In this document: positions 3,207 to 46,106 of the stretch, piece by piece
Numbering within the stretch: the first letter of the stretch is position 1
How the letters are laid out: every line of letters starts with the position of its first letter
Source: Nitrospinales bacterium
GTDB taxonomy: Bacteria > Nitrospinota_A > UBA7883 > JACRGQ01
Assembly (NCBI GenBank): GCA_023248535.1
Contig: JAHFEJ010000002.1
Coordinates: forward strand, 2,714-66,713
DNA: 64,000 bases
Direction: 5' to 3'
Program-made: the position numbers and the translations under genes
Notes under the pieces: generated by a model
What the model was told of the DNA's origin: nothing
The model's database searches: none
Seen by the model: the letters and a program-made list of their open reading frames with translations, nothing else

Positions 3207-5780
3207 TTATGCGCGGAATTTGATCTTTACGCGTTTTCTGGCAAGCAGGGCGGAGAGGATAAGCATTGCCATGATTCCCAATAAAACGCCAGGATATGCG
3301 GCGCAATAAACTATCGGGAGCAAAAGCGCCATGACCACATTTTTCGCCAATCCATTATTCCGGATTTTATCCGCAAGCGCCGGTGAATAGCGGTTATACA
3401 TTTCCACGAACATCCTTCCCGGCACGTTGGTAAGCAAATGATCGTCCCTGAACCGCTTCAGCACCGTTACATGCCAATCCATATTGTTTCCGTAGGCCGC
3501 TGTTGCTATAAAGCAGCCGGATTTGCCGCCTCCTCCAGCCGAGGCAGTAGTGACGGTAGTTGCCGGGGGGGACGCTGTTGCAGCCGCCGGCGTTCCGTAA
3601 CGAAAGAGTCCTTCCCCCTGGGTTGCCGCATAAAGCACCTTGCCGTCCGCGGATATCGCCATTGACTTAACGGCCCTCGTGGATAATCCGGTCATGGCGC
3701 TGTCCGGGAACGGAGCCCATGTTTCCCCGCCATCGGCCGACATATAAACGCCAGAGGTCCAATCGCCCGCATAAACCGCCGCCGAACCAGCGGGGGCCAC
3801 CACTATCCCCCGCACCTGCGGATTCGCGGAAGAAAACCCGGTGTTTTTCGGCCCCGCCCACGTCGCGCCGCCATCGGCACTTTTGAAAATCCCCACCTTC
3901 TCGCTCGCGGCGAACAGGATCAACGGGTTGGATGGGTCGATGGCGACCGCGCGGATATCCGCGTTACCCAGGCCGTTGAGTTGCGACCAGCTGGAGGCTC
4001 CGTCCGAGGTTGAAAACATGCCGCCGGTGGTGGCCGCGAAGGCTTTTTTGGGATCGGCCGCGCCCACAACGATCATGTTTATATTTTTACCGTCGAGGAC
4101 GGAAGGCTTTGCGGCCCAAGTGGCACCCGCATCGGAGGAAACATAAGTAACGGTTCCCACCGGGACGGTGGTATCGACCGTATTCCGGTCTTTTGCCAGC
4201 CCGGCGTACACGATTCTTGTGTCGGAAGGGGCAAAGGCAAGCGCCTTGAAACCCTGCCGCGTGAGCGAACTGCCGGCGTTCGCGGATGGATGCCTCAGCA
4301 CCTCCGTGAATGTTGCGCCGCTATCAATACTCCTGAAGATCACGCCTTGATGTTCATCGGTAACGATAATGATCGCGGTGTCATCCGGTTTTTGCCGTAT
4401 GGAATACCATTCAGGAATCCCGGATGCGCCGCCCGTTGCAATTCCGGTCCAATCATCCCCGCCGTTTGCGCTTTTGAATGGGCCGCTCCTCCCGATTACA
4501 TAAACAAGGCCGCTGGTTGTCGGATCGACATCCACGCCGTGCAAATCCGCGCCGGTATATCCCTTGCTCCACGCCACCCATGTATTCGCTCCATCGGTGG
4601 ACTTAAAAAGGCCGCCGCCGTAAGCGTTGGCGTACAGGGTATTGGCATCGTCATAGGAGACGGTTACGTCTATCGGCACTCCGGCCCGTATCCCGGCCGG
4701 ACCCCAAATCCCCCCCGAATTCCGGAGGGTGCTCCATGTTGTTCCCCCATCCTGGCTGCGATAGAAAGCGACCGAGCTTCCGGCGTAAACGATCAACGGA
4801 TTGGACGTGCTGAAATTGACGGTGGTGAGAATATCGTTTGATACCACCTTTGTCCATGCACCGCCCCCGTTCGCCGTTTTGAACAGGCCGCTGATGAAAC
4901 CGCCGCCGGAATCCGCGGAACAGGCGTTGTTACCGGTGGCCGCAAAAAGAATGTCGGGGTTCGACGGGTGCATCCGGAGGCTGCCCACGTAAAGATCGGC
5001 AAGGCCGGTGTTTACGGCATTCCACGTCGTTCCGCCGTCGGCGCTTTTTATCACGCCGACCCCGCCCCTGATGCCGTTGGTGCAATCCGAATTATTCGCT
5101 TCCCTGTCGAAAATACCCGTTGATGCATAAAGCATGTTCGGGTCGGCCGGATTGATAATCAGATAGCGGGCGAGGTTATCACCTTTCCATATTTTGACCC
5201 AATTGGCTCCTCCGTCCACGGTTTTGTAAATTCTTCCTTTCGTCCGGTTGAACTCTTTTCCGTTCACCGCCGTCGGCACTTCCGCCATTGCATATACCGT
5301 ATTGGAATTCCCGCTTTGTATGGTAAATCCCCTGAATACCAGCCCTATGTCGGTTTCCAGGCTGATACCGTTGACCATCAGGCTCCAGGTAACTCCCGCA
5401 TCGGCGGACTTATACACCCCAAAATCGGCCCCCTGCCCCTGTGTACCGGCCCAGACTATGTTGGGATCATTGGGATCTATTGTGAGGCTGAAAATAGGAA
5501 CGGAATTGCCGCTGGAACCGGATCGGATAAGAATGCCTGAATTGCTGCTGACCCATGTGGCCCCCGTATTGGAGCTTCTGTTGACGCCGCTCCAGTTGTC
5601 GGTAACCAACATGATGTTTTTTGTGGAAGGGTTGATCCGTATATCGTAACCAAGGCCGCCTATCGGCCCGCCCGTCTTTACCCAGGAACCGGCGTGGCTG
5701 GCGGCAGGGGCAAGGGATAAGGCGAAGAGGCACGACAGGGCCCCAATGCCGAAACCCCGCATCCTATTCACAAAGCGCAA
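3207..5780 (-). CDS. Secreted BNR/Asp-box repeat protein (sortilin/Ycf48-like beta-propeller) with a C-terminal CFIATAAYG motif, TM helix and basic tail
   Basis: 857 aa. Signal peptide. More than 12 S/T-x-D-G-G-x-T/A-W Asp-box repeats. C-terminus GCFIATAAYGN followed by a hydrophobic helix and RKRVKIKFRA. An alternative start at MRGFG (5762) would abut the upstream gene. Confidence 0.75.
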   Translation of the reverse strand: MRFVNRMRGFGIGALSCLFALSLAPAASHAGSWVKTGGPIGGLGYDIRINPSTKNIMLVTDNWSGVNRSSNTGATWVSSNSGILIRSGSSGNSVPIFSLTIDPNDPNIVWAGTQGQGADFGVYKSADAGVTWSLMVNGISLETDIGLVFRGFTIQSGNSNTVYAMAEVPTAVNGKEFNRTKGRIYKTVDGGANWVKIWKGDNLARYLIINPADPNMLYASTGIFDREANNSDCTNGIRGGVGVIKSADGGTTWNAVNTGLADLYVGSLRMHPSNPDILFAATGNNACSADSGGGFISGLFKTANGGGAWTKVVSNDILTTVNFSTSNPLIVYAGSSVAFYRSQDGGTTWSTLRNSGGIWGPAGIRAGVPIDVTVSYDDANTLYANAYGGGLFKSTDGANTWVAWSKGYTGADLHGVDVDPTTSGLVYVIGRSGPFKSANGGDDWTGIATGGASGIPEWYSIRQKPDDTAIIIVTDEHQGVIFRSIDSGATFTEVLRHPSANAGSSLTRQGFKALAFAPSDTRIVYAGLAKDRNTVDTTVPVGTVTYVSSDAGATWAAKPSVLDGKNINMIVVGAADPKKAFAATTGGMFSTSDGASSWSQLNGLGNADIRAVAIDPSNPLILFAASEKVGIFKSADGGATWAGPKNTGFSSANPQVRGIVVAPAGSAAVYAGDWTSGVYMSADGGETWAPFPDSAMTGLSTRAVKSMAISADGKVLYAATQGEGLFRYGTPAAATASPPATTVTTASAGGGGKSGCFIATAAYGNNMDWHVTVLKRFRDDHLLTNVPGRMFVEMYNRYSPALADKIRNNGLAKNVVMALLLPIVYCAAYPGVLLGIMAMLILSALLARKRVKIKFRA

Positions 5781-7487: not shown

Positions 7488-8978
7488 TTATTTTTGGCCG
7501 TGGTAGCCGTAGACGCGGTAGAGAACGAACTGGCGCACCGGCTGGCCGCCGCGGCTGATGGTGAGTTCTTTCGCCACTTCGGCCCGGTCAAAGAGGTAGA
7601 ACGCGTCCGGCGGCTCCTCGAAACGGTTGTCCGCCACGAAGATGAAATCGGCCCCGGCGGGGGGGATTTTGTCGGGGAAAAAGTCGAACTGGTCGGTCGA
7701 TCCGTTGAGGCAGTAGACAGGCAGTTTGTTGAGCGTGGCGAAATCGAGCTGCGAGCACATCACCCAGTGGTGGGCCATCACGAATTTTCCCTGTGCGCCG
7801 GGGAGTTTTGCGTACTCTTCTTCCACGGCCTTTCCCACTTCGGGCCAGCCGTACAGCTCGTTGATGATGTCGTATTTCGGCTTGAGCGGCAGGATGGGAT
7901 AAAACACGTGGATGTAAAAAGTCGCCACCAGCGCGGCGGAAAGCCCGATGGCGGCATAGCTGAATTTTTTCCACTGTTCCCGCCGCGTGGCCAGATAGTG
8001 TCCCCACGCGATGTAGAGCGTAAGGTAGCCGAAGGCGGCCCAGTGCGGCTCGGAGGTATGCGACCAGAGGCCGATGTAGTAGAAAAAAACAAGCGGCGGC
8101 GCGCCAAGCCAGAAGAGCGGCGCGAAGCGCATGTCGCGTCCGGCAAAGAGCGATTTGCCGGCGCGGTACGCCGCGTAGCAAAGCCCCAGCCAGATGAGCG
8201 GCGACATGTACAGCCCCTGCCCGCCGATGAACTGGCCGCTGTGATCCCACCCGAAATGCTCTTCCACGTTGCGGTCCACCAGGTGGAACTTGAACGACGG
8301 GAAGTTGTTGATGATATTCCAGGCGATCACCGGCGCGAAGGCCAAAAGCCCCAGCACGCCGCCGAGGTAGATGTGCGGCTTTTTGAGGTGATGGCGCAAC
8401 GCGGGGTGGAAGCCGAGCATCAGCAGGGTGGAGGGAACCAGCGGCGCCAACATGTATTTCCCCAGCAGCCCCGCGCCGATGGCAAGACCGGCGGGGTACC
8501 ACAGAAGCGGCCTGTCTTCGCGCACCGCTTTCGCCGCGATGTTCACGAAAAGCATCCAGAAAAATGCGGCGGGGATGTCCGGCACCATCTGCAGGGCGCC
8601 GAAGGCGAATAGCGGCGTCACGTTGAACAGCAGCAGCGCCCAGAAACCGGTCTCGCGGTTGCCGAATATTTCATAGGCGGTTTTATAAATGAGCCAGCAG
8701 ACGCCGACGAAGATGATGGCCGAGGGGAAGCGCACGCAGAACGGCGAATCGCCGTGTACGGCGGTGGATAGCCGGATGAGCCACGCCACCAGCGGCGGGT
8801 GATCGTAGTAGCTCAGGTCCATGTGGCGCGACCATGTCCAGTAGTACGATTCGCTGTCGCCCAGGCCGGTTTGTCCCATTATCGCCATGTGGCAAAGGGT
8901 AAACGCGGTTACGAGGATGATGGAGCGGGTGCGCCAGACTATGCCGGACCGGCCCTGTTCTGAATTCATGGTGTCCAT
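7488..8978 (-). CDS. GT39/ArnT-PMT family membrane glycosyltransferase (undecaprenyl- or dolichyl-phosphate sugar transferase-like)
   Basis: About 496 aa polytopic membrane protein with the conserved YYDHPPL motif. Start ATG at 8978 chosen just downstream of the lpxI stop; the ORF track extends to 9017. Confidence 0.7.
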   Translation of the reverse strand: MDTMNSEQGRSGIVWRTRSIILVTAFTLCHMAIMGQTGLGDSESYYWTWSRHMDLSYYDHPPLVAWLIRLSTAVHGDSPFCVRFPSAIIFVGVCWLIYKTAYEIFGNRETGFWALLLFNVTPLFAFGALQMVPDIPAAFFWMLFVNIAAKAVREDRPLLWYPAGLAIGAGLLGKYMLAPLVPSTLLMLGFHPALRHHLKKPHIYLGGVLGLLAFAPVIAWNIINNFPSFKFHLVDRNVEEHFGWDHSGQFIGGQGLYMSPLIWLGLCYAAYRAGKSLFAGRDMRFAPLFWLGAPPLVFFYYIGLWSHTSEPHWAAFGYLTLYIAWGHYLATRREQWKKFSYAAIGLSAALVATFYIHVFYPILPLKPKYDIINELYGWPEVGKAVEEEYAKLPGAQGKFVMAHHWVMCSQLDFATLNKLPVYCLNGSTDQFDFFPDKIPPAGADFIFVADNRFEEPPDAFYLFDRAEVAKELTISRGGQPVRQFVLYRVYGYHGQK

Positions 8979-15566: not shown

Positions 15567-15624
15567 GGCGTCATTGTATAGCGGCCCCCCGCCAAAAAAA
15601 AGTGCTTCTCCGGCTTATGAATAT

Positions 15625-15718
15625 AACCACAGAGGCCCAGAGGCACAGAGCCGCAAAAAAGATTTTTGATGTCATTCACCAACAAGCTGTTTCTCCGTGC
15701 CTCCGTGGCTCTGTGGTT
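15625..15718. repeat. Palindromic intergenic element copy C
   Basis: AACCACAGAGGCCCAGAGGCACAGAG...CTCCGTGCCTCCGTGGCTCTGTGGTT. Confidence 0.7.
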
Positions 15719-15780
15719 TTTTGTCTCTAAAAAGCGGGGATTCCTTGCAAGGTTGCGCCGCCGCGCTTACACTTGAGGCG

Positions 15781-17223
15781 ATGACGCAAAAAATACTTTT
15801 CGTCGCGCCGCCGACAAACGCCACGAAACAGCTTACGCCCGACCTCGGCATCGGCTTCCTGGCATCCGCCCTGCGCGATGCGGGGTTTTCGGTCGATTTC
15901 ATCGATGTGCGCCGCGACGGTTTCTCCCGCGCGGCATTTATCCAGCGGCTGCGGCGCGAGCCGTACCTCTTCGTGGGGGTGAAGGTTTTTTCCACTTCGC
16001 TGCCGGAAGCGAACGAAGTGCTGAACGCCGTGCGCGAGGCGTTGCCGCAAACGAAGATCGTCATCGGCGGCCCCCACCCCACCTACGCGCCGGTTGACGC
16101 GCTGAAAAGCTGCCCCGCCGCCGACGTTGGCATCATCGGCGAAGGGGATGTGGCGGTGGTTGCGCTGGCCAATGCCTTCGCACAGGGGAACAGCGTCGCC
16201 GACATCGAGGCCATCGCGTTCCGCGACGGCAGCACGATACGGGTGAATGGGCGAAAGTCGTTCCTCGATCTCGAACGGCTGCCGATCCCGGCGTGGGATC
16301 TCATCGATCCGCGCCGTTATGTGGGCCACGAAGACCTCTGGTTCTTCAGCAAGGGGAAAGTGACCGCGCCGATATCGGTCGGCCGCGGCTGCCCGTTCAA
16401 GTGCACCTTCTGTTCCGATTTCATCGTGGCGGGGCGCAACGTCCGCTACCGCCCCGTTGAAAAGGTGATGGACGAGATCGCGCTGCTGGTGAACGAATAC
16501 GGCGTCGACGAGATACACCTCACCGATTCCATTTTCACCATCAACAAAAAGTACGTCTACTCCTTCTGCGAGAACTTGCAAAAACGGAACCTGAAAATCC
16601 ACTGGGCCACCCCTTATGGCACGCGGCTGGATACGCTGGATGTGGAACTGCTGGGCGCGATGGAGCAGGCGGGCTGCTACGGCACCTCCGTCGGCATAGA
16701 GGCGGGCAGCGACCCGATGCTGGCCTTCATGAAAAAGGGGGTTACGGTGGCGCTGGTGGAGGAAAAAATCGCGCTCATCAAGACGAATACCAAGTGGCTG
16801 GTGCAGGGGTTCTTCATTTTAGGCTATCCCACTGAAACGCGCGAAACGATGCGCGCGACCATCGATCTGGCCTGCCGCCTGCCGCTCGATATGGCGGTCT
16901 TTGCGCCGTTCCGCGCCACGCCGGGAACGGAAGTGGCGGCCTACCTCGCCGCGAACGAGCCGGAGTTCACCCCCAAATGGGGAAACCAAACCGTTGAGCA
17001 ACTTGTTTACCACCCGCGCGGCATCGGCGTGGAAGAGCTGGAGCAGTGGCATCGCCGCGCGTACCGCGCGTTCTACTTCCGCCCGCGGGTGGCGTGGCGC
17101 TATCTGATGATGATACGCGGTAAGAAGGAGCTGCGGCTCCTCGCCACCAAATTCAAGAACCGCATCTTCCGCCGCGCATCAGTTGAGGCGGATTCCACCT
17201 CTCCTCCCGTCTGGGCCTCGTGA
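15781..17223 (+). CDS. B12-binding domain radical SAM protein (class B)
   Basis: N-terminal cobalamin-binding-like domain. CPFKCTFC (CxxxCxxC) radical SAM motif. Confidence 0.8.
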   Translation: MTQKILFVAPPTNATKQLTPDLGIGFLASALRDAGFSVDFIDVRRDGFSRAAFIQRLRREPYLFVGVKVFSTSLPEANEVLNAVREALPQTKIVIGGPHPTYAPVDALKSCPAADVGIIGEGDVAVVALANAFAQGNSVADIEAIAFRDGSTIRVNGRKSFLDLERLPIPAWDLIDPRRYVGHEDLWFFSKGKVTAPISVGRGCPFKCTFCSDFIVAGRNVRYRPVEKVMDEIALLVNEYGVDEIHLTDSIFTINKKYVYSFCENLQKRNLKIHWATPYGTRLDTLDVELLGAMEQAGCYGTSVGIEAGSDPMLAFMKKGVTVALVEEKIALIKTNTKWLVQGFFILGYPTETRETMRATIDLACRLPLDMAVFAPFRATPGTEVAAYLAANEPEFTPKWGNQTVEQLVYHPRGIGVEELEQWHRRAYRAFYFRPRVAWRYLMMIRGKKELRLLATKFKNRIFRRASVEADSTSPPVWAS

Positions 17224-17224
17224 T
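17206..17224. repeat. 19-bp direct repeat DR1 (CCCGTCTGGGCCTCGTGAT) at the 3' end of the radical SAM gene
   Basis: Identical copy at 17957-17975. The flanking CCTCC context is also duplicated. Confidence 0.8.
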
Positions 17225-17276
17225 GGTATATTTCATGGTATGGATTGTATAAAGCCCCGATAAAGGGAATGGCATA

Positions 17277-17606
17277 ATGAGATTGCCAAAGGAAGTTATC
17301 ATTCCGGATGAAAAGCTCACGCGCTATCTTCTTGTTCCCCGGAATTGGGATGACAAGTCCAAATATCTTGCCCAAGCCGGATTCACCCAACGCAACCCGG
17401 ACGATCTGAAAGAGGCATTGACGGCTCTTGCGGCAACGTCGGAAACCGTGCAAGATGGTACAAATGAGTATGGTGAATTTCTGCGGACCGATGGCGCGTT
17501 AACGGGCCCGAACGGACGCGAACTTCCCGTAGCCGCCATTTGGCTGCGCTGGCGTATGGATGGGAGCGTCCATTTTGTGACCTTAAAACCGAGAAAGGAA
17601 AAATAG
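17277..17606 (+). CDS. DUF6883-like protein
   Basis: 109 aa. KLTRYLL...KSKYLAQAGFT pattern typical of DUF6883 partners of DUF4926. Confidence 0.55.
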   Translation: MRLPKEVIIPDEKLTRYLLVPRNWDDKSKYLAQAGFTQRNPDDLKEALTALAATSETVQDGTNEYGEFLRTDGALTGPNGRELPVAAIWLRWRMDGSVHFVTLKPRKEK

Positions 17607-17608
17607 CC

Positions 17609-17857
17609 ATGGGAATCGCGCTTTACCAGCGGGTGGCTTTGGCCGTTGACGAGCCGGAGCTGAACCTCAAAAAAGGGGATGTCGCCATGCTTGTTGATCA
17701 TGTTCCGCATCCTTCCGGCGGGGAAAATGGTTATGTATTGGAAATATTCAATGCGCTGGGCGAGTCCATCACCACTGTAACCGTAAGGGAATCCCATGTT
17801 GAACCGTTGCAGGCGGATGAGGTATTAAGCGTCCGCCATATGGCGAAGGTGGGATAA
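17609..17857 (+). CDS. DUF4926-like small protein
   Basis: 82 aa. KKGDVAMLV...YVLEIFNALGESITTVTV...LQAD pattern. Starts 2 nt after the DUF6883 stop. Confidence 0.55.
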   Translation: MGIALYQRVALAVDEPELNLKKGDVAMLVDHVPHPSGGENGYVLEIFNALGESITTVTVRESHVEPLQADEVLSVRHMAKVG

Positions 17858-17956
17858 AGTTTAGGATCTGTTTTATGAGCTGTGTAAGTAGCCATTGTTA
17901 CGGTGGCCGTCAAACGGCATGCCTAAGTTGTCAACCTGTAACCTGCCCTCCCTCCC

Positions 17957-17975
17957 CCCGTCTGGGCCTCGTGAT
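17957..17975. repeat. 19-bp direct repeat DR2 (CCCGTCTGGGCCTCGTGAT)
   Basis: Exact duplicate of 17206-17224. Closes the DUF6883/DUF4926 cassette. Confidence 0.8.
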
Positions 17976-18006
17976 ATAATTTCTCCCAATTCATAAGGAG
18001 AAAAGG

Positions 18007-18747
18007 ATGTCGTCAGCTTTATGGTTTGTGGCGGTCTTCAGCGCGGCGGTGATTGTGCATGAATTGGGACATTTTTTGGCCGCCCGCCGTTGCGGCTTGC
18101 TGGTGGGGGAATTCGCCATCGGCTTTCCCTTCAGCCCGCGTGTTATCACCCTCTTCAGCCACCGCGAGACCGAATTCACCATCCGGCTGTTGCCAATCGG
18201 CGGCTTTATCGGTTTTTCCGGCGGGGACGAGCCGGGCGGATTTGGCGCTCTTTCATCACGGCAAAAACTTGTTGTTATCGCCGCCGGACCGGTTTTTAAT
18301 ATCGTTTTCGCGGGAATTCTCTTCCCCCTCTATTTCATGTTCCATGCCGGGATGCCGCTTCTCGCGGCGGTGGCAAAGTCGGCCGTCCTCATGCAAACCG
18401 CGTTCATAGGCACAGGCCAGTTTCTGTTTCATCTCGTCAGCACCGGCTCGCTGGATGGGCTTGCAGGGCCGGTCGGCATAGCGTCGATGGCCGGCGCTGC
18501 GGCTCTGGCGGGGGTTTGGAGCATCATTTATTTCGTGGCGGTGTTAAGCCTGAGCCTTGGCATTATGAATTTCCTGCCGCTTCCGGCGCTGGATGGCGGC
18601 CAGATCGTCATGCTCGCCGCCGAACGCCTCAAAGGCTCGCCGTTCAGCGAACGGACGCTTGCATTGGTCAATAACGCGGGGATGGCCCTGCTGCTTCTGC
18701 TTTCGGCGGTGGTGACGGTAAAGGACGTAGCCGCCCTGTTGGCGTAG
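18007..18747 (+). CDS. M50 family site-2 protease-like membrane metalloprotease (no PDZ domain)
   Basis: HELGH zinc motif in TM1. NFLPLPALDGG second motif. Confidence 0.8.
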   Translation: MSSALWFVAVFSAAVIVHELGHFLAARRCGLLVGEFAIGFPFSPRVITLFSHRETEFTIRLLPIGGFIGFSGGDEPGGFGALSSRQKLVVIAAGPVFNIVFAGILFPLYFMFHAGMPLLAAVAKSAVLMQTAFIGTGQFLFHLVSTGSLDGLAGPVGIASMAGAAALAGVWSIIYFVAVLSLSLGIMNFLPLPALDGGQIVMLAAERLKGSPFSERTLALVNNAGMALLLLLSAVVTVKDVAALLA

Positions 18748-18779
18748 CAATCTCACGATAAGCTTTATCGGCAGTATGG

Positions 18780-19844
18780 TTAGCGGTGCGCGAGGATGGC
18801 GTGCAGGGCGGCGGCGAGGGTGGCCATCTCTTCATCGGTGCCGATGGTGATGCGGAGGAAATCGGCAAGGCGCGGCTTGTTCCAGTAGCGCACAAGGATA
18901 TTTTTGGCGCGCAGCGCGTCGTACAGTTCCTGCCCGCCGTGGCGCGGGTGGCGGGCGAAGACGAAGTTCGCCTTTGACGGCAGCACTTCAAAGCCGAGTT
19001 GTTGCAGGGTGACGACCGTTGCTTCCCGCGTCTTGATGATGGCGGCGCGGCATTTTTCAAAATATTCTTTGTCATCCATCGCGGCGGCGGCCCCGGCAAT
19101 GGCAAGCCTGTCCATCGTGTACGAGTTGAACGAGTTTTTCACCGCCTCCATGCCGGTTATCAGTTCGGCGTGGCCGACGGCGAACCCGGCTCGCAGCCCC
19201 GCCAGCGAGCGGGATTTTGAAAAAGTCTGCGTCACCAGCAGGTTCGGGTATTTGCTCACCAAGGGTATCGCGCTCTCGCCGCCGAAATCGACGTATGCCT
19301 CGTCCACCAACACCACCGTATCGGCGTTGCGTTTCAGCAGCGCGTCGATCTCGGCTACCGCAGTGAAGCAGCCGGTCGGGGCGTTCGGGTTGGGGAATAG
19401 CACGCCGCCGTTTTGGGCGGGGGCGCGGCTGAGGTCGATCTGCCAATCGTCGGCGATGGGAAACGTTTTGAACGGTACGCCAAAAAGTTCGCAGTAGACC
19501 GGATAAAAACTATAGGTGATATCGGGGAACACCAGCGGCAGTTTGTTGCGGAAAAAGGCGAGGAACGCGACCGCCAGCACCTCGTCCGAGCCGTTCCCGG
19601 CAAAGACGTTTTCGGCCCTAACTCCATAATAACGGGCTATAGCGGTTTTCATCGCCGATGCGTCCGGGTCGGGATAGAGCCGCAGCCCCGCGTCCGCCGC
19701 CTCTTTAATGGTGGCGATGGCGCGCGGCGAAGGGGGATAGGGGTTTTCGTTGGTGTTGAGCTTGATGACGCTCCCCTCTTTCGGCTGTTCCCCCGGCACG
19801 TAGGGTTTGAGGGTTCGCAACCCCTCGCTCCAAAACCTGTTCAT
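18780..19844 (-). CDS. hisC: Histidinol-phosphate aminotransferase
   Basis: Class II aminotransferase. NTNENPYPPSP motif and PLP lysine motif FSKSRSLAGLR. Start MNRFWS at 19844. Confidence 0.8.
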   Translation of the reverse strand: MNRFWSEGLRTLKPYVPGEQPKEGSVIKLNTNENPYPPSPRAIATIKEAADAGLRLYPDPDASAMKTAIARYYGVRAENVFAGNGSDEVLAVAFLAFFRNKLPLVFPDITYSFYPVYCELFGVPFKTFPIADDWQIDLSRAPAQNGGVLFPNPNAPTGCFTAVAEIDALLKRNADTVVLVDEAYVDFGGESAIPLVSKYPNLLVTQTFSKSRSLAGLRAGFAVGHAELITGMEAVKNSFNSYTMDRLAIAGAAAAMDDKEYFEKCRAAIIKTREATVVTLQQLGFEVLPSKANFVFARHPRHGGQELYDALRAKNILVRYWNKPRLADFLRITIGTDEEMATLAAALHAILAHR

Positions 19845-19924
19845 GGGGAGCAATTGTAGCAACTGCGGGCAGAAGGTGGAAGGACGGGTTTGCCTGTGGG
19901 CGTTCCTTGGTGGCCCAGCTAATT

Positions 19925-20260
19925 TTATTTCCCGGCAAACTTTTCCAATGTTGCGACCAGCGGCGGTAAGTCGGCGGTAACGGTGTCCCACACCACGTTC
20001 TGATCGATATCGAAGTATGCGTGAATAAGCCGGTTTCGCATTGTGATGATATCTTTCCACGGGATGTCCGGCAGTTCATTACGGCTTTCGGCGGATATTT
20101 TTGAGGCCGCCTCCCCGATGATTTCAATCGACTTAACGAGTGACAGCAGAAGCATCCTATCGGTTTGCAGCTCTTCCCTTGTTCTGCCTTTGATGAACCT
20201 TATGGCATCAAGCGCGCCATCGCGCATGTGCTGAAGCCGTATCAGGTCATCCCTTTTCAT
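19925..20260 (-). CDS. hepT: HepT-like (DUF86) toxin of a HepT/MntA TA pair
   Basis: 111 aa. Rx4HxY motif (RNRLIHAY). Confidence 0.8.
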   Translation of the reverse strand: MKRDDLIRLQHMRDGALDAIRFIKGRTREELQTDRMLLLSLVKSIEIIGEAASKISAESRNELPDIPWKDIITMRNRLIHAYFDIDQNVVWDTVTADLPPLVATLEKFAGK

Positions 20261-20546
20261 ATACTACTTCGGCTTCGGCCAAAACTTCCTGGCGGAAGTA
20301 TCGGCTTAAATCCATCGGCGTCCTGAGGTCGGCCTTTTTGCCGATGATCCCGGAAAGCTCGTTCTCGATATGCGCCATACGGATGAGGCCGATTTTGGCA
20401 TCAGGCTCGAAAGTCACCAGAAAGTCCACATCACCCTCTTCGCGCACACCGCCCTTGATGGCGGAACCGAACACCGCCAGCCGGGCGATATTGTTTTTCC
20501 GGCAGAAATCGGCGATTTCCTTCAGGGGTATGGCAACACTTATCAT
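20247..20546 (-). CDS. mntA: MntA-like nucleotidyltransferase antitoxin
   Basis: 99 aa. NTase GS motif (FGSAIKG) and DVD. Overlaps hepT by 14 nt. The rest of the 303-aa track ORF is the wrong frame. Confidence 0.75.
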   Translation of the reverse strand: MISVAIPLKEIADFCRKNNIARLAVFGSAIKGGVREEGDVDFLVTFEPDAKIGLIRMAHIENELSGIIGKKADLRTPMDLSRYFRQEVLAEAEVVYEKG

Positions 20547-20678
20547 ACGGGTGATTATACCGCTTTTTATGCCCTTTGAGAGCGGGCCTATAGCCAAGTC
20601 TGATGACCGGCCAATTTTATTTTTCCACCTCCCGGCACTATAATCTTCCATAAACCTGCTATACGGGAGACCCCCATT

Positions 20679-21113
20679 ATGCCGCTGGTGTTTAAAGACC
20701 GCTACGAGATTGACGATTCGTTCGGCCGTCTTGACTTCGACCAGCTGGAGCAGTGGCTTTCCAACACCTACTGGAGTCCCGGCATAAGGAAAGACGAGAT
20801 CATCAAGGGGACACGGCACTCCTCCATCGCAGTCGGCTGTTATTTGGACGGGCGGCAGGTGGGCTTCCTGCGGGTGGTGAGCGATAAGACCCGCTTTGGA
20901 TATTTTCTCGACGTGTATGTGGACGAGGCGCACCGGAAGAAAGGCTTGGCGCAGGCGATGATGCGATTTGTTTTTGACCATCCCGATTTTGCGGATGTCT
21001 ATATTTGGTTGCTGATCACCAAGGATGCCCACGGCGTGTACTCGAAACTGGGGTTTACGCCGGTGCCGGAACCTCAAAATTGCATGGGGATCAAAAAACC
21101 GCGCAACCGGTGA
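20679..21113 (+). CDS. GNAT family N-acetyltransferase
   Basis: 144 aa. Acetyl-CoA binding motif A-like region (HRKKGLAQAMM). Confidence 0.75.
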   Translation: MPLVFKDRYEIDDSFGRLDFDQLEQWLSNTYWSPGIRKDEIIKGTRHSSIAVGCYLDGRQVGFLRVVSDKTRFGYFLDVYVDEAHRKKGLAQAMMRFVFDHPDFADVYIWLLITKDAHGVYSKLGFTPVPEPQNCMGIKKPRNR

Positions 21114-45035: not shown

Positions 45036-45776
45036 ATGACCAAAGAAATGCTTGAGCGCCAGCATGCAAGCCTCTCCCTCGTCACCCACGACCTGAAATC
45101 GCCGATGGTCGCCATCATCGGCTGTTCCCGATTCCTGATGCGCGACATGAAAAACAAGCCGCACGACCCCAATTGGCTCCTTATGGTGGAGCGGATGGTG
45201 AAGGCGGGGGAGGGAATGCTGGTGCTCATCGAAACCATCCTTGCTATGGGAAAAATGGAAGCGGGGAAAGAACACGTCGAGCCAACTTGGACTGCGGATA
45301 TTGCCGATGAATTGCGGGAAACCGTTAAAACGTTCGAGTACGAAGCGGCGGCGAAAAATATTCGCCTGATGGTCGATACACCAACGCCGCTGCCGCCAGT
45401 TTTTTGGGATATAATGCGGTTGCGCCACCACGTTTTCAACAACATTATCTCAAACGCCCTCAAATTCACCCCTGCGGATGGCAACGTAACCCTTTCGGCA
45501 AGGCAGCGGGAAAATCTGGTGGAAATCCGCGTTGCCGATACCGGCCCTGGCATCGCGCCGGAAGAGCAGGAAAAAATATTCTCCCGGTTCGAGCAGGGGA
45601 GCATGACCACACAACGGGTATTCAACGGGTCAGGCCTGGGCCTCTACAACGCCCGCCTGTTTGTGGACCGGCACGGCGGGACAATTGCCGTGGAAAACTC
45701 CAACGAAATGGGGACGGTCATCCTCATCACGCTGCCGCTGGTGAAGGCCGATGCTCCCGTCCCCGCAATGGCGTAA
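45036..45776 (+). CDS. Cytoplasmic sensor histidine kinase (HisKA + HATPase_c)
   Basis: 246 aa. H-box THDLKSPM. N, G1 and G2 boxes present. No TM segment. Confidence 0.8.
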   Translation: MTKEMLERQHASLSLVTHDLKSPMVAIIGCSRFLMRDMKNKPHDPNWLLMVERMVKAGEGMLVLIETILAMGKMEAGKEHVEPTWTADIADELRETVKTFEYEAAAKNIRLMVDTPTPLPPVFWDIMRLRHHVFNNIISNALKFTPADGNVTLSARQRENLVEIRVADTGPGIAPEEQEKIFSRFEQGSMTTQRVFNGSGLGLYNARLFVDRHGGTIAVENSNEMGTVILITLPLVKADAPVPAMA

Positions 45777-45870
45777 CGCAAATCCATCCTGTTGGCCATC
45801 AAGGGCGGAGTGCCGGAAGCGGGCGATTATGAAAAGGGATGACCTTGTTGGAAAAGTCCGCCGGGAAATA

Positions 45871-45891
45871 AAATTGGCTGGCCACCAAGGA
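45871..45891. repeat. Direct repeat of the tRNA-Gln 3' end (AAATTGGCTGGCCACCAAGGA)
   Basis: Identical to 46029-46049. A further inverted partial copy TTCGAATCCTTGGTG lies at 46002-46016. Confidence 0.75.
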
Positions 45892-46032
45892 ACGCCCACA
45901 GGCGCGGTCGCATCACGCTCCCGCTTTGCGGGCCGCCTTGCTTGCTATGCCGGACATCCTGTCCGTCATGCGCTCCCTAACCGGTCACGCCGCGCGCTTG
46001 CTTCGAATCCTTGGTGCAAGTTATGGAAAAAT

Positions 46033-46106
46033 TGGCTGGCCACCAAGGATTCGAACCTCGATAGGCAGATCCAGAATCTGCTGTCCTACCATTAGACGAG
46101 TGGCCA
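46033..46106 (-). tRNA. tRNA-Gln (anticodon CUG)
   Basis: Manual fold: U1-A72 acceptor (TGGCCAC/GTGGCCA), D-arm GTCT/GGAC, anticodon stem GCAGA/TCTGC with loop TTCTGGA, T-arm CGAGG-TTCGAAT-CCTTG, discriminator G, encoded CCA. Confidence 0.85.

Follow-up and report, generated by a model that had tools for sequence, protein, structure and literature searches.

It is an old question by what route toxin-antitoxin modules on chromosomes, and small defence modules, move if they encode no mobility functions. The question arises for a 64,000-nucleotide (nt) stretch of DNA from a Nitrospinales bacterium (contig JAHFEJ010000002.1, one contig of the assembly GCA_023248535.1; hereafter the window), in which a two-gene DUF6883-DUF4926 cassette lies between a B12-binding radical SAM gene (rSAM) and a gene of the M50 (site-2 protease) family and is flanked by two copies of the 3' end of rSAM. 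An earlier note, made from the sequence alone, had suggested that the pair was a small toxin-antitoxin-like cassette inserted by a site-specific or target-duplicating mechanism. Comparison with orthologous loci, in which a clean pair of occupied and empty sites was available, indicates that 727 bp entered right after the sequence ...GTGAT at the end of rSAM and that at least 24 nt of the target were duplicated.

The 19-mer CCCGTCTGGGCCTCGTGAT is present on the plus strand at 17206-17224 and 17957-17975, and these were the only copies found in the 64 kb when up to three mismatches were allowed (chance expectation 0.03). Two or more copies occurred in 0 of 100 dinucleotide shuffles, and together with the copy number in the 64 kb this ruled out chance or a common repetitive extragenic palindromic (REP) sequence as the origin of the 19-mer. 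The repeat extends to 24 nt, with 23 of 24 positions identical and the copies offset by 751 nt, and possibly to ~32 nt with the inclusion of ATA(A)TTTC beyond an indel. Copy 1 is coding and, as the earlier note had read it, contains the last codons and stop of rSAM (seven codons, TGA and one further base); rSAM, the target gene, retains its open reading frame (ORF) and stop codon after the insertion. The same note held that the repeats bracket exactly the DUF6883 and DUF4926 genes. These are indeed the only genes inside, but a 52-nt leader and a 94-nt trailer are enclosed as well. Both cassette ORFs scored above the Pfam gathering thresholds. The features are given below, with GC3 denoting the guanine-plus-cytosine (GC) content at third codon positions.

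15781-17223, plus strand: rSAM, the B12-binding radical SAM gene, 480 aa (Pfam B12-binding 81 bits, Radical_SAM 63.5 bits)
17201-17224, plus strand: direct repeat copy 1, CTCCTCCCGTCTGGGCCTCGTGAT; last seven rSAM codons (SPPVWAS), TGA stop and one T
17225-17951, plus strand: inserted cassette, 727 bp, from comparison of the window with locus L010
17225-17276, plus strand: cassette leader, 52 nt, GC 0.385, with no homology to the empty site
17277-17606, plus strand: DUF6883 gene, 109 aa (Pfam 47.4 bits, cut-off 27; GC3 0.54)
17609-17857, plus strand: DUF4926 gene, 82 aa (Pfam 32.7 bits, cut-off 29.1; GC3 0.58)
17858-17951, plus strand: cassette trailer, 94 nt
17952-17975, plus strand: direct repeat copy 2, CTCCCCCCGTCTGGGCCTCGTGAT; non-coding, aligns colinearly with the lone rSAM tail at the empty site
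17976-18006, plus strand: ancestral spacer with the ribosome-binding site AAGGAGAA 5' of M50
18007-18747, plus strand: M50 gene, the intact downstream neighbour (Pfam Peptidase_M50 171 bits)

Thirteen orthologous loci were recovered from relatives named Nitrospinales or Nitrospinota, with nucleotide identities to the window of 86-89% over rSAM, M50 and hisC, the convergent histidinol-phosphate-aminotransferase-like gene that comes after M50. They include L004, a Logan contig from an independent assembly, which is 100% identical to the window across 5.9 kb and may derive from the same reads. The following arrangements were observed.

Window and L004: rSAM, DUF6883, DUF4926, second rSAM tail, spacer, M50
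L010: rSAM ending ...GTCTGGGCATCGTGAT, 32-nt spacer, M50
L005-L009, L096 and L097: rSAM, a 74-aa SHOCT gene, M50
L001 and L002: rSAM ending ...GGGCCTAA, a terminator hairpin, convergent hisC; neither M50 nor cassette
L098 and L099: rSAM, an unrelated low-GC ORF of 183 aa, hisC; no M50

The DUF6883-DUF4926 pair was found at this junction only in the window and L004, and was absent from L001, L002, L005-L010 and L096-L099. L010 provides the empty site with one repeat copy that the earlier note had proposed as a check. From copy 2 onward the window (CCCGTCTGGGCCTCGTGAT followed by ATAATTTCTCCCAATTCATAAGGAGAAAAGGATG) is colinear with L010 (TCCGTCTGGGCATCGTGAT followed by ATAATTTTCGCCAATTCATAAGGAGAACATGATG). 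The M50 start lies 31 bases past copy 2, and the stop-to-start spacer (counting begins with the first base beyond the stop codon) measures 32 nt in the window and L010 alike, with 27 of the 32 bases identical by direct reading. Each of the two window copies can be aligned to the one rSAM tail present in L010, the repeat sequence is single-copy in the relatives, and the boundaries of the insert are exact. The M50 orthologues show 88% amino acid identity in L010, where M50 follows rSAM, and in L005-L009, where it follows rSAM and SHOCT. Since L010 is colinear with copy 2, the ancestral state was an L010-like junction. The homology of both copies to the M50-less relatives ends at GGGCCT, and the next bases, CGTGAT, are common to both copies; therefore the rSAM/M50 junction predates the duplication. 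The earlier note had not covered the lack of M50 in L001 and L002, from which it follows that the local history comprises at least two steps, nor the different small genes that other relatives carry in the same spacer.

The GC content of the cassette is 0.508 versus 0.581 for the window, and GC3 in the DUF6883 and DUF4926 genes lies below that in rSAM (0.80), M50 (0.70) and hisC (0.78). Judged by this composition, the cassette is foreign and its DNA horizontally acquired. In agreement with the earlier note, no integrase or transposase was called from ~4 kb upstream to ~6 kb downstream, the whole 64 kb not having been exhaustively annotated; further nearby ORFs tested for a recombinase were negative, and the neighbours called by Pfam were lpxA, fabZ, lpxD, rSAM, M50, an aminotransferase, HepT/MNT and GNAT. 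No inverted repeat links one end of the cassette to the other. The trailer together with the repeat folded no better than shuffles (z 0.56) and formed no attC-like structure, and the trailer contained no terminator structure and no Rfam match. Local alignments of the trailer with the rSAM tails of all relatives were no better than shuffles, which indicates that the duplication reaches no further left. A longer, hidden duplication involving AAC... and GCCTAA...GTAACCT 5' of copy 2 was rejected, as the resemblance of these stretches to the relatives' rSAM tails was not significant against shuffles. The cassette could be assigned neither to transposons or miniature inverted-repeat transposable elements, nor to att-bounded islands, attC or Xer modules, or REP elements.

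We examined the cargo of the cassette by homology and structure prediction. DUF6883 homologues with 52-83% identity occur across many phyla. The recurrent adjacency of the two families asserted in the earlier note was found in 81 of 84 loci, in which DUF4926 directly follows DUF6883 in the same orientation and starts 0-30 nt from its stop; the remaining three contigs end first. The AlphaFold model of DUF6883, built with 40 homologues, had a mean predicted local distance difference test score (pLDDT) of 93.4 and consisted of three helices followed by a four-stranded antiparallel sheet. Foldseek searches against the Protein Data Bank (PDB) gave strong matches only to the four chains of 6CP9 (TM 0.70-0.75, probability 1.0), the CdiA-CT toxin of Klebsiella pneumoniae 342 with its immunity protein, with a sequence identity to DUF6883 of 18-19%; the toxins RelE and HigB2 were weaker structural matches. 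An independent 2026 preprint places DUF6883 in the BECR-fold RNase family BECR-Tox3 and regards DUF4926, which is conserved downstream of it, as a likely immunity gene (bioRxiv 10.64898/2026.08.28.747851). DUF6883 is accordingly listed here as a predicted BECR-fold RNase toxin and DUF4926 as its predicted cognate immunity or antitoxin protein, and the pair as a predicted toxin-first toxin/immunity module of the type II toxin-antitoxin-like kind, in line with the toxin-antitoxin-like cargo suggested earlier. The single-sequence model of DUF4926 (pLDDT 64) was too poor for structure search.

The pair resembles the BECR pairs CdiA-CT/CdiI (6CP9) and BECR-Tox3 in its predicted fold, in having the toxin first and a small partner second, and in its invariant adjacency. 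Unlike those toxins, the DUF6883 protein of the window is a stand-alone protein of 109 aa with no delivery domain (no CdiA, MuF or other fusion), and is therefore more like part of an intracellular type II toxin-antitoxin module than a secreted effector. The pair was also found on nine plasmids of cyanobacteria, of which eight are mobilizable or conjugative. No match to the pair as a stand-alone gene in phage was obtained in GenBank phages or IMG/VR, and PADLOC, NCBIfam and PHROGs returned nothing informative for either protein.

Unrelated housekeeping genes flank the closest homologous cassettes (L012-L017), whose leaders and trailers show no conservation. Several homologous cassettes bear flanking direct repeats of their own that are built of local target sequence. 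At L020, 46 nt of the moaC 3' end are duplicated exactly; the upstream moaC copy has gained a new three-codon tail, and in the downstream copy both the original tail and the ATGA overlap between it and a macro-domain gene are retained. At L012, ~91 nt of the hsdR 5' end (88% identical, plus ~12 nt upstream) are duplicated 5' of the cassette. The L012 copies, at 946-1036 and 1664-1754, differ at 13 positions, 12 of which are synonymous by direct reading, and share an exact block of 26 nt. The copies therefore probably passed through different functional hsdR alleles rather than decaying in place, a pattern that fits later spread by homologous recombination.

Repeat statistics were compiled from 50 usable independent clusters, 42 of them non-cyanobacterial. 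An exact flanking direct repeat of at least 19 nt was present in 4 of the 42 non-cyanobacterial clusters versus 0 of 66 pseudo-cassettes set at other positions within those loci (Fisher p 0.02), and repeats of this length in inverted orientation flanked none of the 42. With blastn-short, the best mis-paired or inverted scores were at most 30 bits, compared with 40-94 bits for the four repeat cases. The cyanobacterial repeat loci (L058-61, L080-82 and L089-94) were dropped, as pseudo-cassettes in the same HIP1-rich loci also yielded repeats of at least 17 nt. The repeat at L070 proved to be a coordinate artefact, and L016, with a 13-nt core, was borderline. L050 was counted statistically but is not a clean case, because its region is complex and contains a remnant second cassette and a transposase-like fragment.

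Two observations on individual cassettes were made in passing. In L050 (700-1000 and 1660-1900), the upstream remnant next to the intact pair consists of a DUF6883 fragment (..EDGRND.GAFYRVEG..) joined to a DUF4926 C terminus (..ANEVLSVRQLVKAA, then the stop), and the 50-nt repeat lies partly inside a small ORF further downstream, starting at 1663, which on visual inspection resembles a transposase gene; the arrangement suggests tandem cassettes and decay. In the cyanobacterial L090 (2346-2465), and also in L089 and L094, 22-nt flanking repeats additionally enclose a hydrophobic ORF of 39 aa (MMGATYLVIIVTTLTAVVFSAFVFVDIMIKW...) 5' of DUF6883.

A similar footprint, with unrelated cargo, was found at the other end of the same target gene. 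In L097, an insert comprising DUF2513, DarT and the macro-domain protein DarG lies between lpxD and the 5' end of the orthologous rSAM gene. A 57-nt direct repeat (54 of 57 identical) borders this insert on both sides, at 1634-1690 and 3961-4017, equivalent to ~15727-15797 of the window. The repeat contains the promoter-like rSAM sequence TTGCAA-17-TACACT, the ATG and five codons, and its upstream copy ends as a six-codon stub (MAGKIL and a stop). The window, L001 and L005 each contain this sequence once, and each of the two L097 copies differs from the relatives by derived changes of its own, which is what duplication in place would produce. On the 3' side of rSAM, the SHOCT gene (L005 7714-7938, L096 6480-6704, L097 5480-5704) entered the rSAM-M50 spacer at about the point between ATTCATAA and GGAG. 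Relatives carry different small genes in this spacer, which makes the rSAM 3' junction a hot spot for small cargo. Flanking repeats were not found around SHOCT (L005, L096), the MNT-HEPN genes of L096, the 183-aa ORF of L098 or the HepT/MNT pair of the window.

Overall, we consider it likely that an addiction-type cassette was inserted with target duplication by two illegitimate joints; our confidence is higher for the insertion with target duplication and lower for the pathway by which the ends were joined. In this proposal, incoming cassette DNA, plausibly from a plasmid, would have been joined without a cassette-encoded or sequence-specific recombinase. Two independent illegitimate joints would have formed at chromosomal positions ~24 nt apart, on sister duplexes or at staggered breaks, and the offset between them would have produced the duplication. 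Selection would retain only those offsets that rebuild the rSAM 3' end and preserve the M50 promoter and ribosome-binding site, making the insertion neutral, and toxin addiction (post-segregational killing) could then have stabilised and fixed the insert. The repeats are locus-specific, range from 24 to ~91 nt, derive from the target and occur with different cargoes, which argues against both a fixed-stagger transposase and a sequence-specific recombinase.

Several points weigh against this proposal. No flanking repeat was found in 38 of the 42 clusters, the p value of 0.02 rests on few events, and the cyanobacterial loci, where local repeats are common, had to be excluded. The donor sequence is lacking, so junction microhomologies are not verifiable. 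The empty-site relatives are just 86-89% identical in nucleotide sequence, so that there is no near-isogenic pair from before and after the event and the event is undatable, and all evidence comes from metagenome assemblies. The 24-nt repeat is shorter than the 30-bp criterion of Furuta et al. and lies within the range of att cores and of the target duplications of the IS1202 subgroup, which are 27-28 bp (bioRxiv 10.1101/2022.12.17.520857), and the biochemical mechanism of this type of insertion has never been demonstrated in the literature.

Insertion with long target duplication has been described for restriction-modification units (Nobusato et al. 2000, Gene 259:99; Furuta, Abe & Kobayashi 2010, PMC2853133), where "long" denotes more than 30 bp, the repeats often span start or stop sites, one 46-bp repeat overlaps 15 bp of the HI0105 3' end, and insertion into operon-like structures is known (PMC2853133). 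By its footprint, the window cassette would belong to this class of insertion with long, variable target duplication. It shares with the restriction-modification insertions a small addiction-type unit without a mobility gene, repeats that align to one copy at the empty site, a repeat that spans the start or stop of an intact neighbour, and an atypical composition. Their locus-to-locus variability in repeat length is matched by repeats of 24 nt in the window, 46 nt in L020, ~91 nt in L012 and 57 nt in L097. The differences are that the cargo is an RNase toxin/immunity pair by prediction (DarT/DarG in L097) in place of restriction-modification genes whose enzyme cleaves DNA, that the 24-nt repeat falls below 30 bp, and that the host is a metagenome-assembled genome (MAG) of Nitrospinota, a new phylum for this mode. 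Since the predicted cargo is an RNase toxin, the driver proposed by those authors, double-strand breakage by the restriction enzyme, could not apply here. A later review names this insertion mode for restriction-modification systems only, and our literature search found no account of it for classical toxin-antitoxin modules. What is new here is the cargo type and the phylum for a known insertion mode, not a new kind of element.

We weighed four other explanations. Campbell-type entry, which we regard as unlikely, would have the duplication arise in a related genome, from which a looped-out circle bearing the cassette and one rSAM tail was transferred and entered by a RecA-dependent single crossover in the shared stretch of at least 24 nt. 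At 19 nt here and 26 nt in L012, the exact blocks come close to the minimal homology length for RecA-mediated recombination, the mostly synonymous L012 differences suggest two functional alleles, and a cycle of repeat-mediated release and re-entry has been hypothesised for restriction-modification units. Such entry, however, would still need a primary target-duplicating event, so that it extends insertion by illegitimate joints and does not replace it. Moreover, no other genome was found with the pair at this junction, and the copies in L097 each carry changes of their own, as for duplication in place.

Site-specific integration, the other mechanism named in the earlier note, appears slightly less probable still. 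It would require a tyrosine or serine recombinase encoded elsewhere, acting on a circle through a 24-nt core shared with the rSAM 3' end. Direct repeats that duplicate a gene 3' end are the classical signature of attL and attR, 24 nt is a typical core length, the lone mismatch between the copies could mark the element-borne one, and an att-like duplicate of a tRNA-Gln 3' end elsewhere in the window indicates that integrases have acted on this genome. Genomic islands integrate at the 3' ends of tRNA genes, and islands and prophages likewise leave the target gene intact, with its 3' end duplicated as direct repeats. Against this, no recombinase was found in or near the cassette, the insert consists of just 727 bp and two genes, and the repeat has neither inverted-repeat arms nor a dif- or attC-like structure. 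The homologous cassettes lie at unrelated sites, their flanking repeats are unrelated in sequence and of 46 nt, ~91 nt or none, and their ends are not conserved. The unrelated DarTG cargo has the same architecture with yet another repeat. The target-duplicating half of the earlier suggestion thus fits the locus, and the site-specific half is unsupported.

Two further kinds of mobile element can be compared. In integron cassettes and Xer-dependent (pdif/xrs) modules, the recombinase is encoded elsewhere, toxin-antitoxin cargo is frequent, and the sites are attC hairpins or 28-bp XerC/D sites. These modules are, like the window cassette, promoter-poor units of one or two genes with short repeats, but the repeat here is plain target sequence (a coding end and a stop), unstructured and different at every locus. 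The IS1202 subgroup and its non-autonomous derivatives have an unusually long target duplication of similar size; IS1202, however, has inverted repeats and a transposase, neither of which was found here, and the sister cases range from 24 to ~91 nt and are not of fixed length.

It is very unlikely that the cassette was ancestral at this junction and was lost from the relatives by precise deletion between the repeats, which would make the empty site a scar. Recombination between the 24-nt direct repeats would give exactly the L010 arrangement, and an empty site by itself has no polarity. The pair is nevertheless absent from all 12 other orthologous loci, which show four arrangements, its GC3 is 0.2-0.25 below that of its neighbours, its closest homologues (73-83% amino acid identity) lie in unrelated contexts, and the repeat itself would still require an insertion. 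That the two copies are a chance repeat, a dispersed REP-like element or an assembly artefact fusing two genomes at a common 24-mer is scarcely credible in spite of the low-complexity C-rich flanks and the metagenomic origin of the data, given the copy number against expectation and shuffles, the register of the repeat with both the gene end and the empty site, the identical structure in L004, and the fact that, in a chimera, a foreign piece would have had to be joined through this 24-mer at each of its two ends.

Promoter-like motifs were found at both junctions.

17224-17232, plus strand: TGGTATATT, extended -10-like motif at the left junction, containing the only plus-strand TGNTATATT of the window
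17972-17980, plus strand: TGATATAAT, perfect extended -10 (TGnTATAAT) in copy 2, the single plus-strand occurrence in the window

The motif TGATATAAT overlaps the rSAM stop codon in all M50-type relatives, with the same position in L005-L010, L096 and L097, and is presumed to be the M50 promoter, whose first bases fall within the duplicated target segment. The left junction, in which GTGAT is joined to GGTATATTT, creates TGGTATATT, which may act as a cassette promoter; transcription of the cassette probably proceeds from this motif or by read-through from rSAM. A simple promoter scan for -35 and -10 boxes, which requires the -35 box, gave no match at the junction. The left motif can be read in two ways: either the duplication was once ~8 nt longer (ATAATTTC versus ATA-TTTC after a 3-nt indel), or a similar element was brought by the cassette itself. 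Under either reading, M50 would keep its presumed promoter and ribosome-binding site, rSAM its ORF and stop, and the cassette would have a plausible promoter. In the leader, the sequence CATGGTATGGATT at 17233-17245 matches SHOCT codons 6-10 of the relatives (L005 ~7745-7757) at 12 of 13 nt (p 0.017, uncorrected, 16 tests), which is either chance or a trace of an earlier occupant.

The footprint recurs in homologous cassettes in unrelated genomes and with DarTG at the other side of rSAM, which suggests that the mode extends beyond restriction-modification, and its recurrence with predicted RNase and DarTG cargo argues against cargo-made DNA double-strand breaks as the cause. We put forward tentatively, as a possibility rather than an expectation, that addiction or defence modules lacking mobility genes enter gene junctions quite generally, whatever their cargo, through insertion with long, variable target duplication; the examples here are the predicted RNase toxin/immunity pair and DarT/DarG, which ADP-ribosylates DNA. 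If so, the duplication would give the newcomer a copy of the resident expression signals and leave both neighbours intact, the repeats could later permit loop-out and re-entry as circles, and DNA breakage by the cargo, as proposed for restriction-modification, would not be required. A testable design rule would be that a duplicated segment bearing a neighbour's stop or start together with a promoter or ribosome-binding site makes the insert operon-neutral and possibly expressed at once. The DUF6883-DUF4926 family would then offer a multi-instance dataset for tracing the responsible host pathway. As a practical use, such repeats could delimit recently acquired toxin-antitoxin or defence cassettes in MAGs.

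Some further observations concern the neighbourhood of the cassette. For the presence or absence of M50, the left boundary lies exactly at the last rSAM codon (after GGGCCT; window 17219), and the M50-less genomes have the terminator hairpin GAGAGAACCTTTTTGTAAAAAGGCTCTCTC in its place (L001 4555-4625). At the right boundary (window 18750-18800 compared with L001), hisC is longer at its 3' end in the window, owing to 21 additional nt. The possibility that M50 is an inverted or paralogous copy of the 246-aa ORF after hisC in L001 was rejected, as that ORF is an unrelated histidine kinase (window 45036-45776). The 183-aa ORF of L098 and L099 contains an R-x4-H motif (RDRLLH). In the lpxD-rSAM spacer (window 15620-15720) there is an inverted repeat, imperfect and with arms of ~26 nt (AACCACAGAGGCCCAGAGGCACAGAG ... 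CTCCGTGCCTCCGTGGCTCTGTGGTT). MNT and HEPN occupy the same spacer in L096, as does DarTG in L097; a small ORF 3' of rSAM in L003 lies between repeats of a similar type (AACCGCCGAGGGCGCAAAGGACGCAGAGG).

Beyond hisC, a pair of HepT (HEPN RNase) and MNT nucleotidyltransferase genes (19925-20600, minus strand) and a GNAT gene (20679-21113) lie beside hisC at an inversion breakpoint, and are missing from this position in L001, L002, L005 and L096. The inverted segment spans 26 kb and is bounded by a ~57-nt inverted repeat (93% identical; window 19892-19948 and 45848-45903); its inversion is relative to L001, L002 and L005, where the histidine kinase gene directly follows hisC. Within the repeat lies TGGCTGGCCACCAAGGA, which nearly reproduces the 3' end of the tRNA-Gln gene at 46033-46106 (minus strand); this looks like either att-type copies with an inversion between them or a duplication associated with the inversion.

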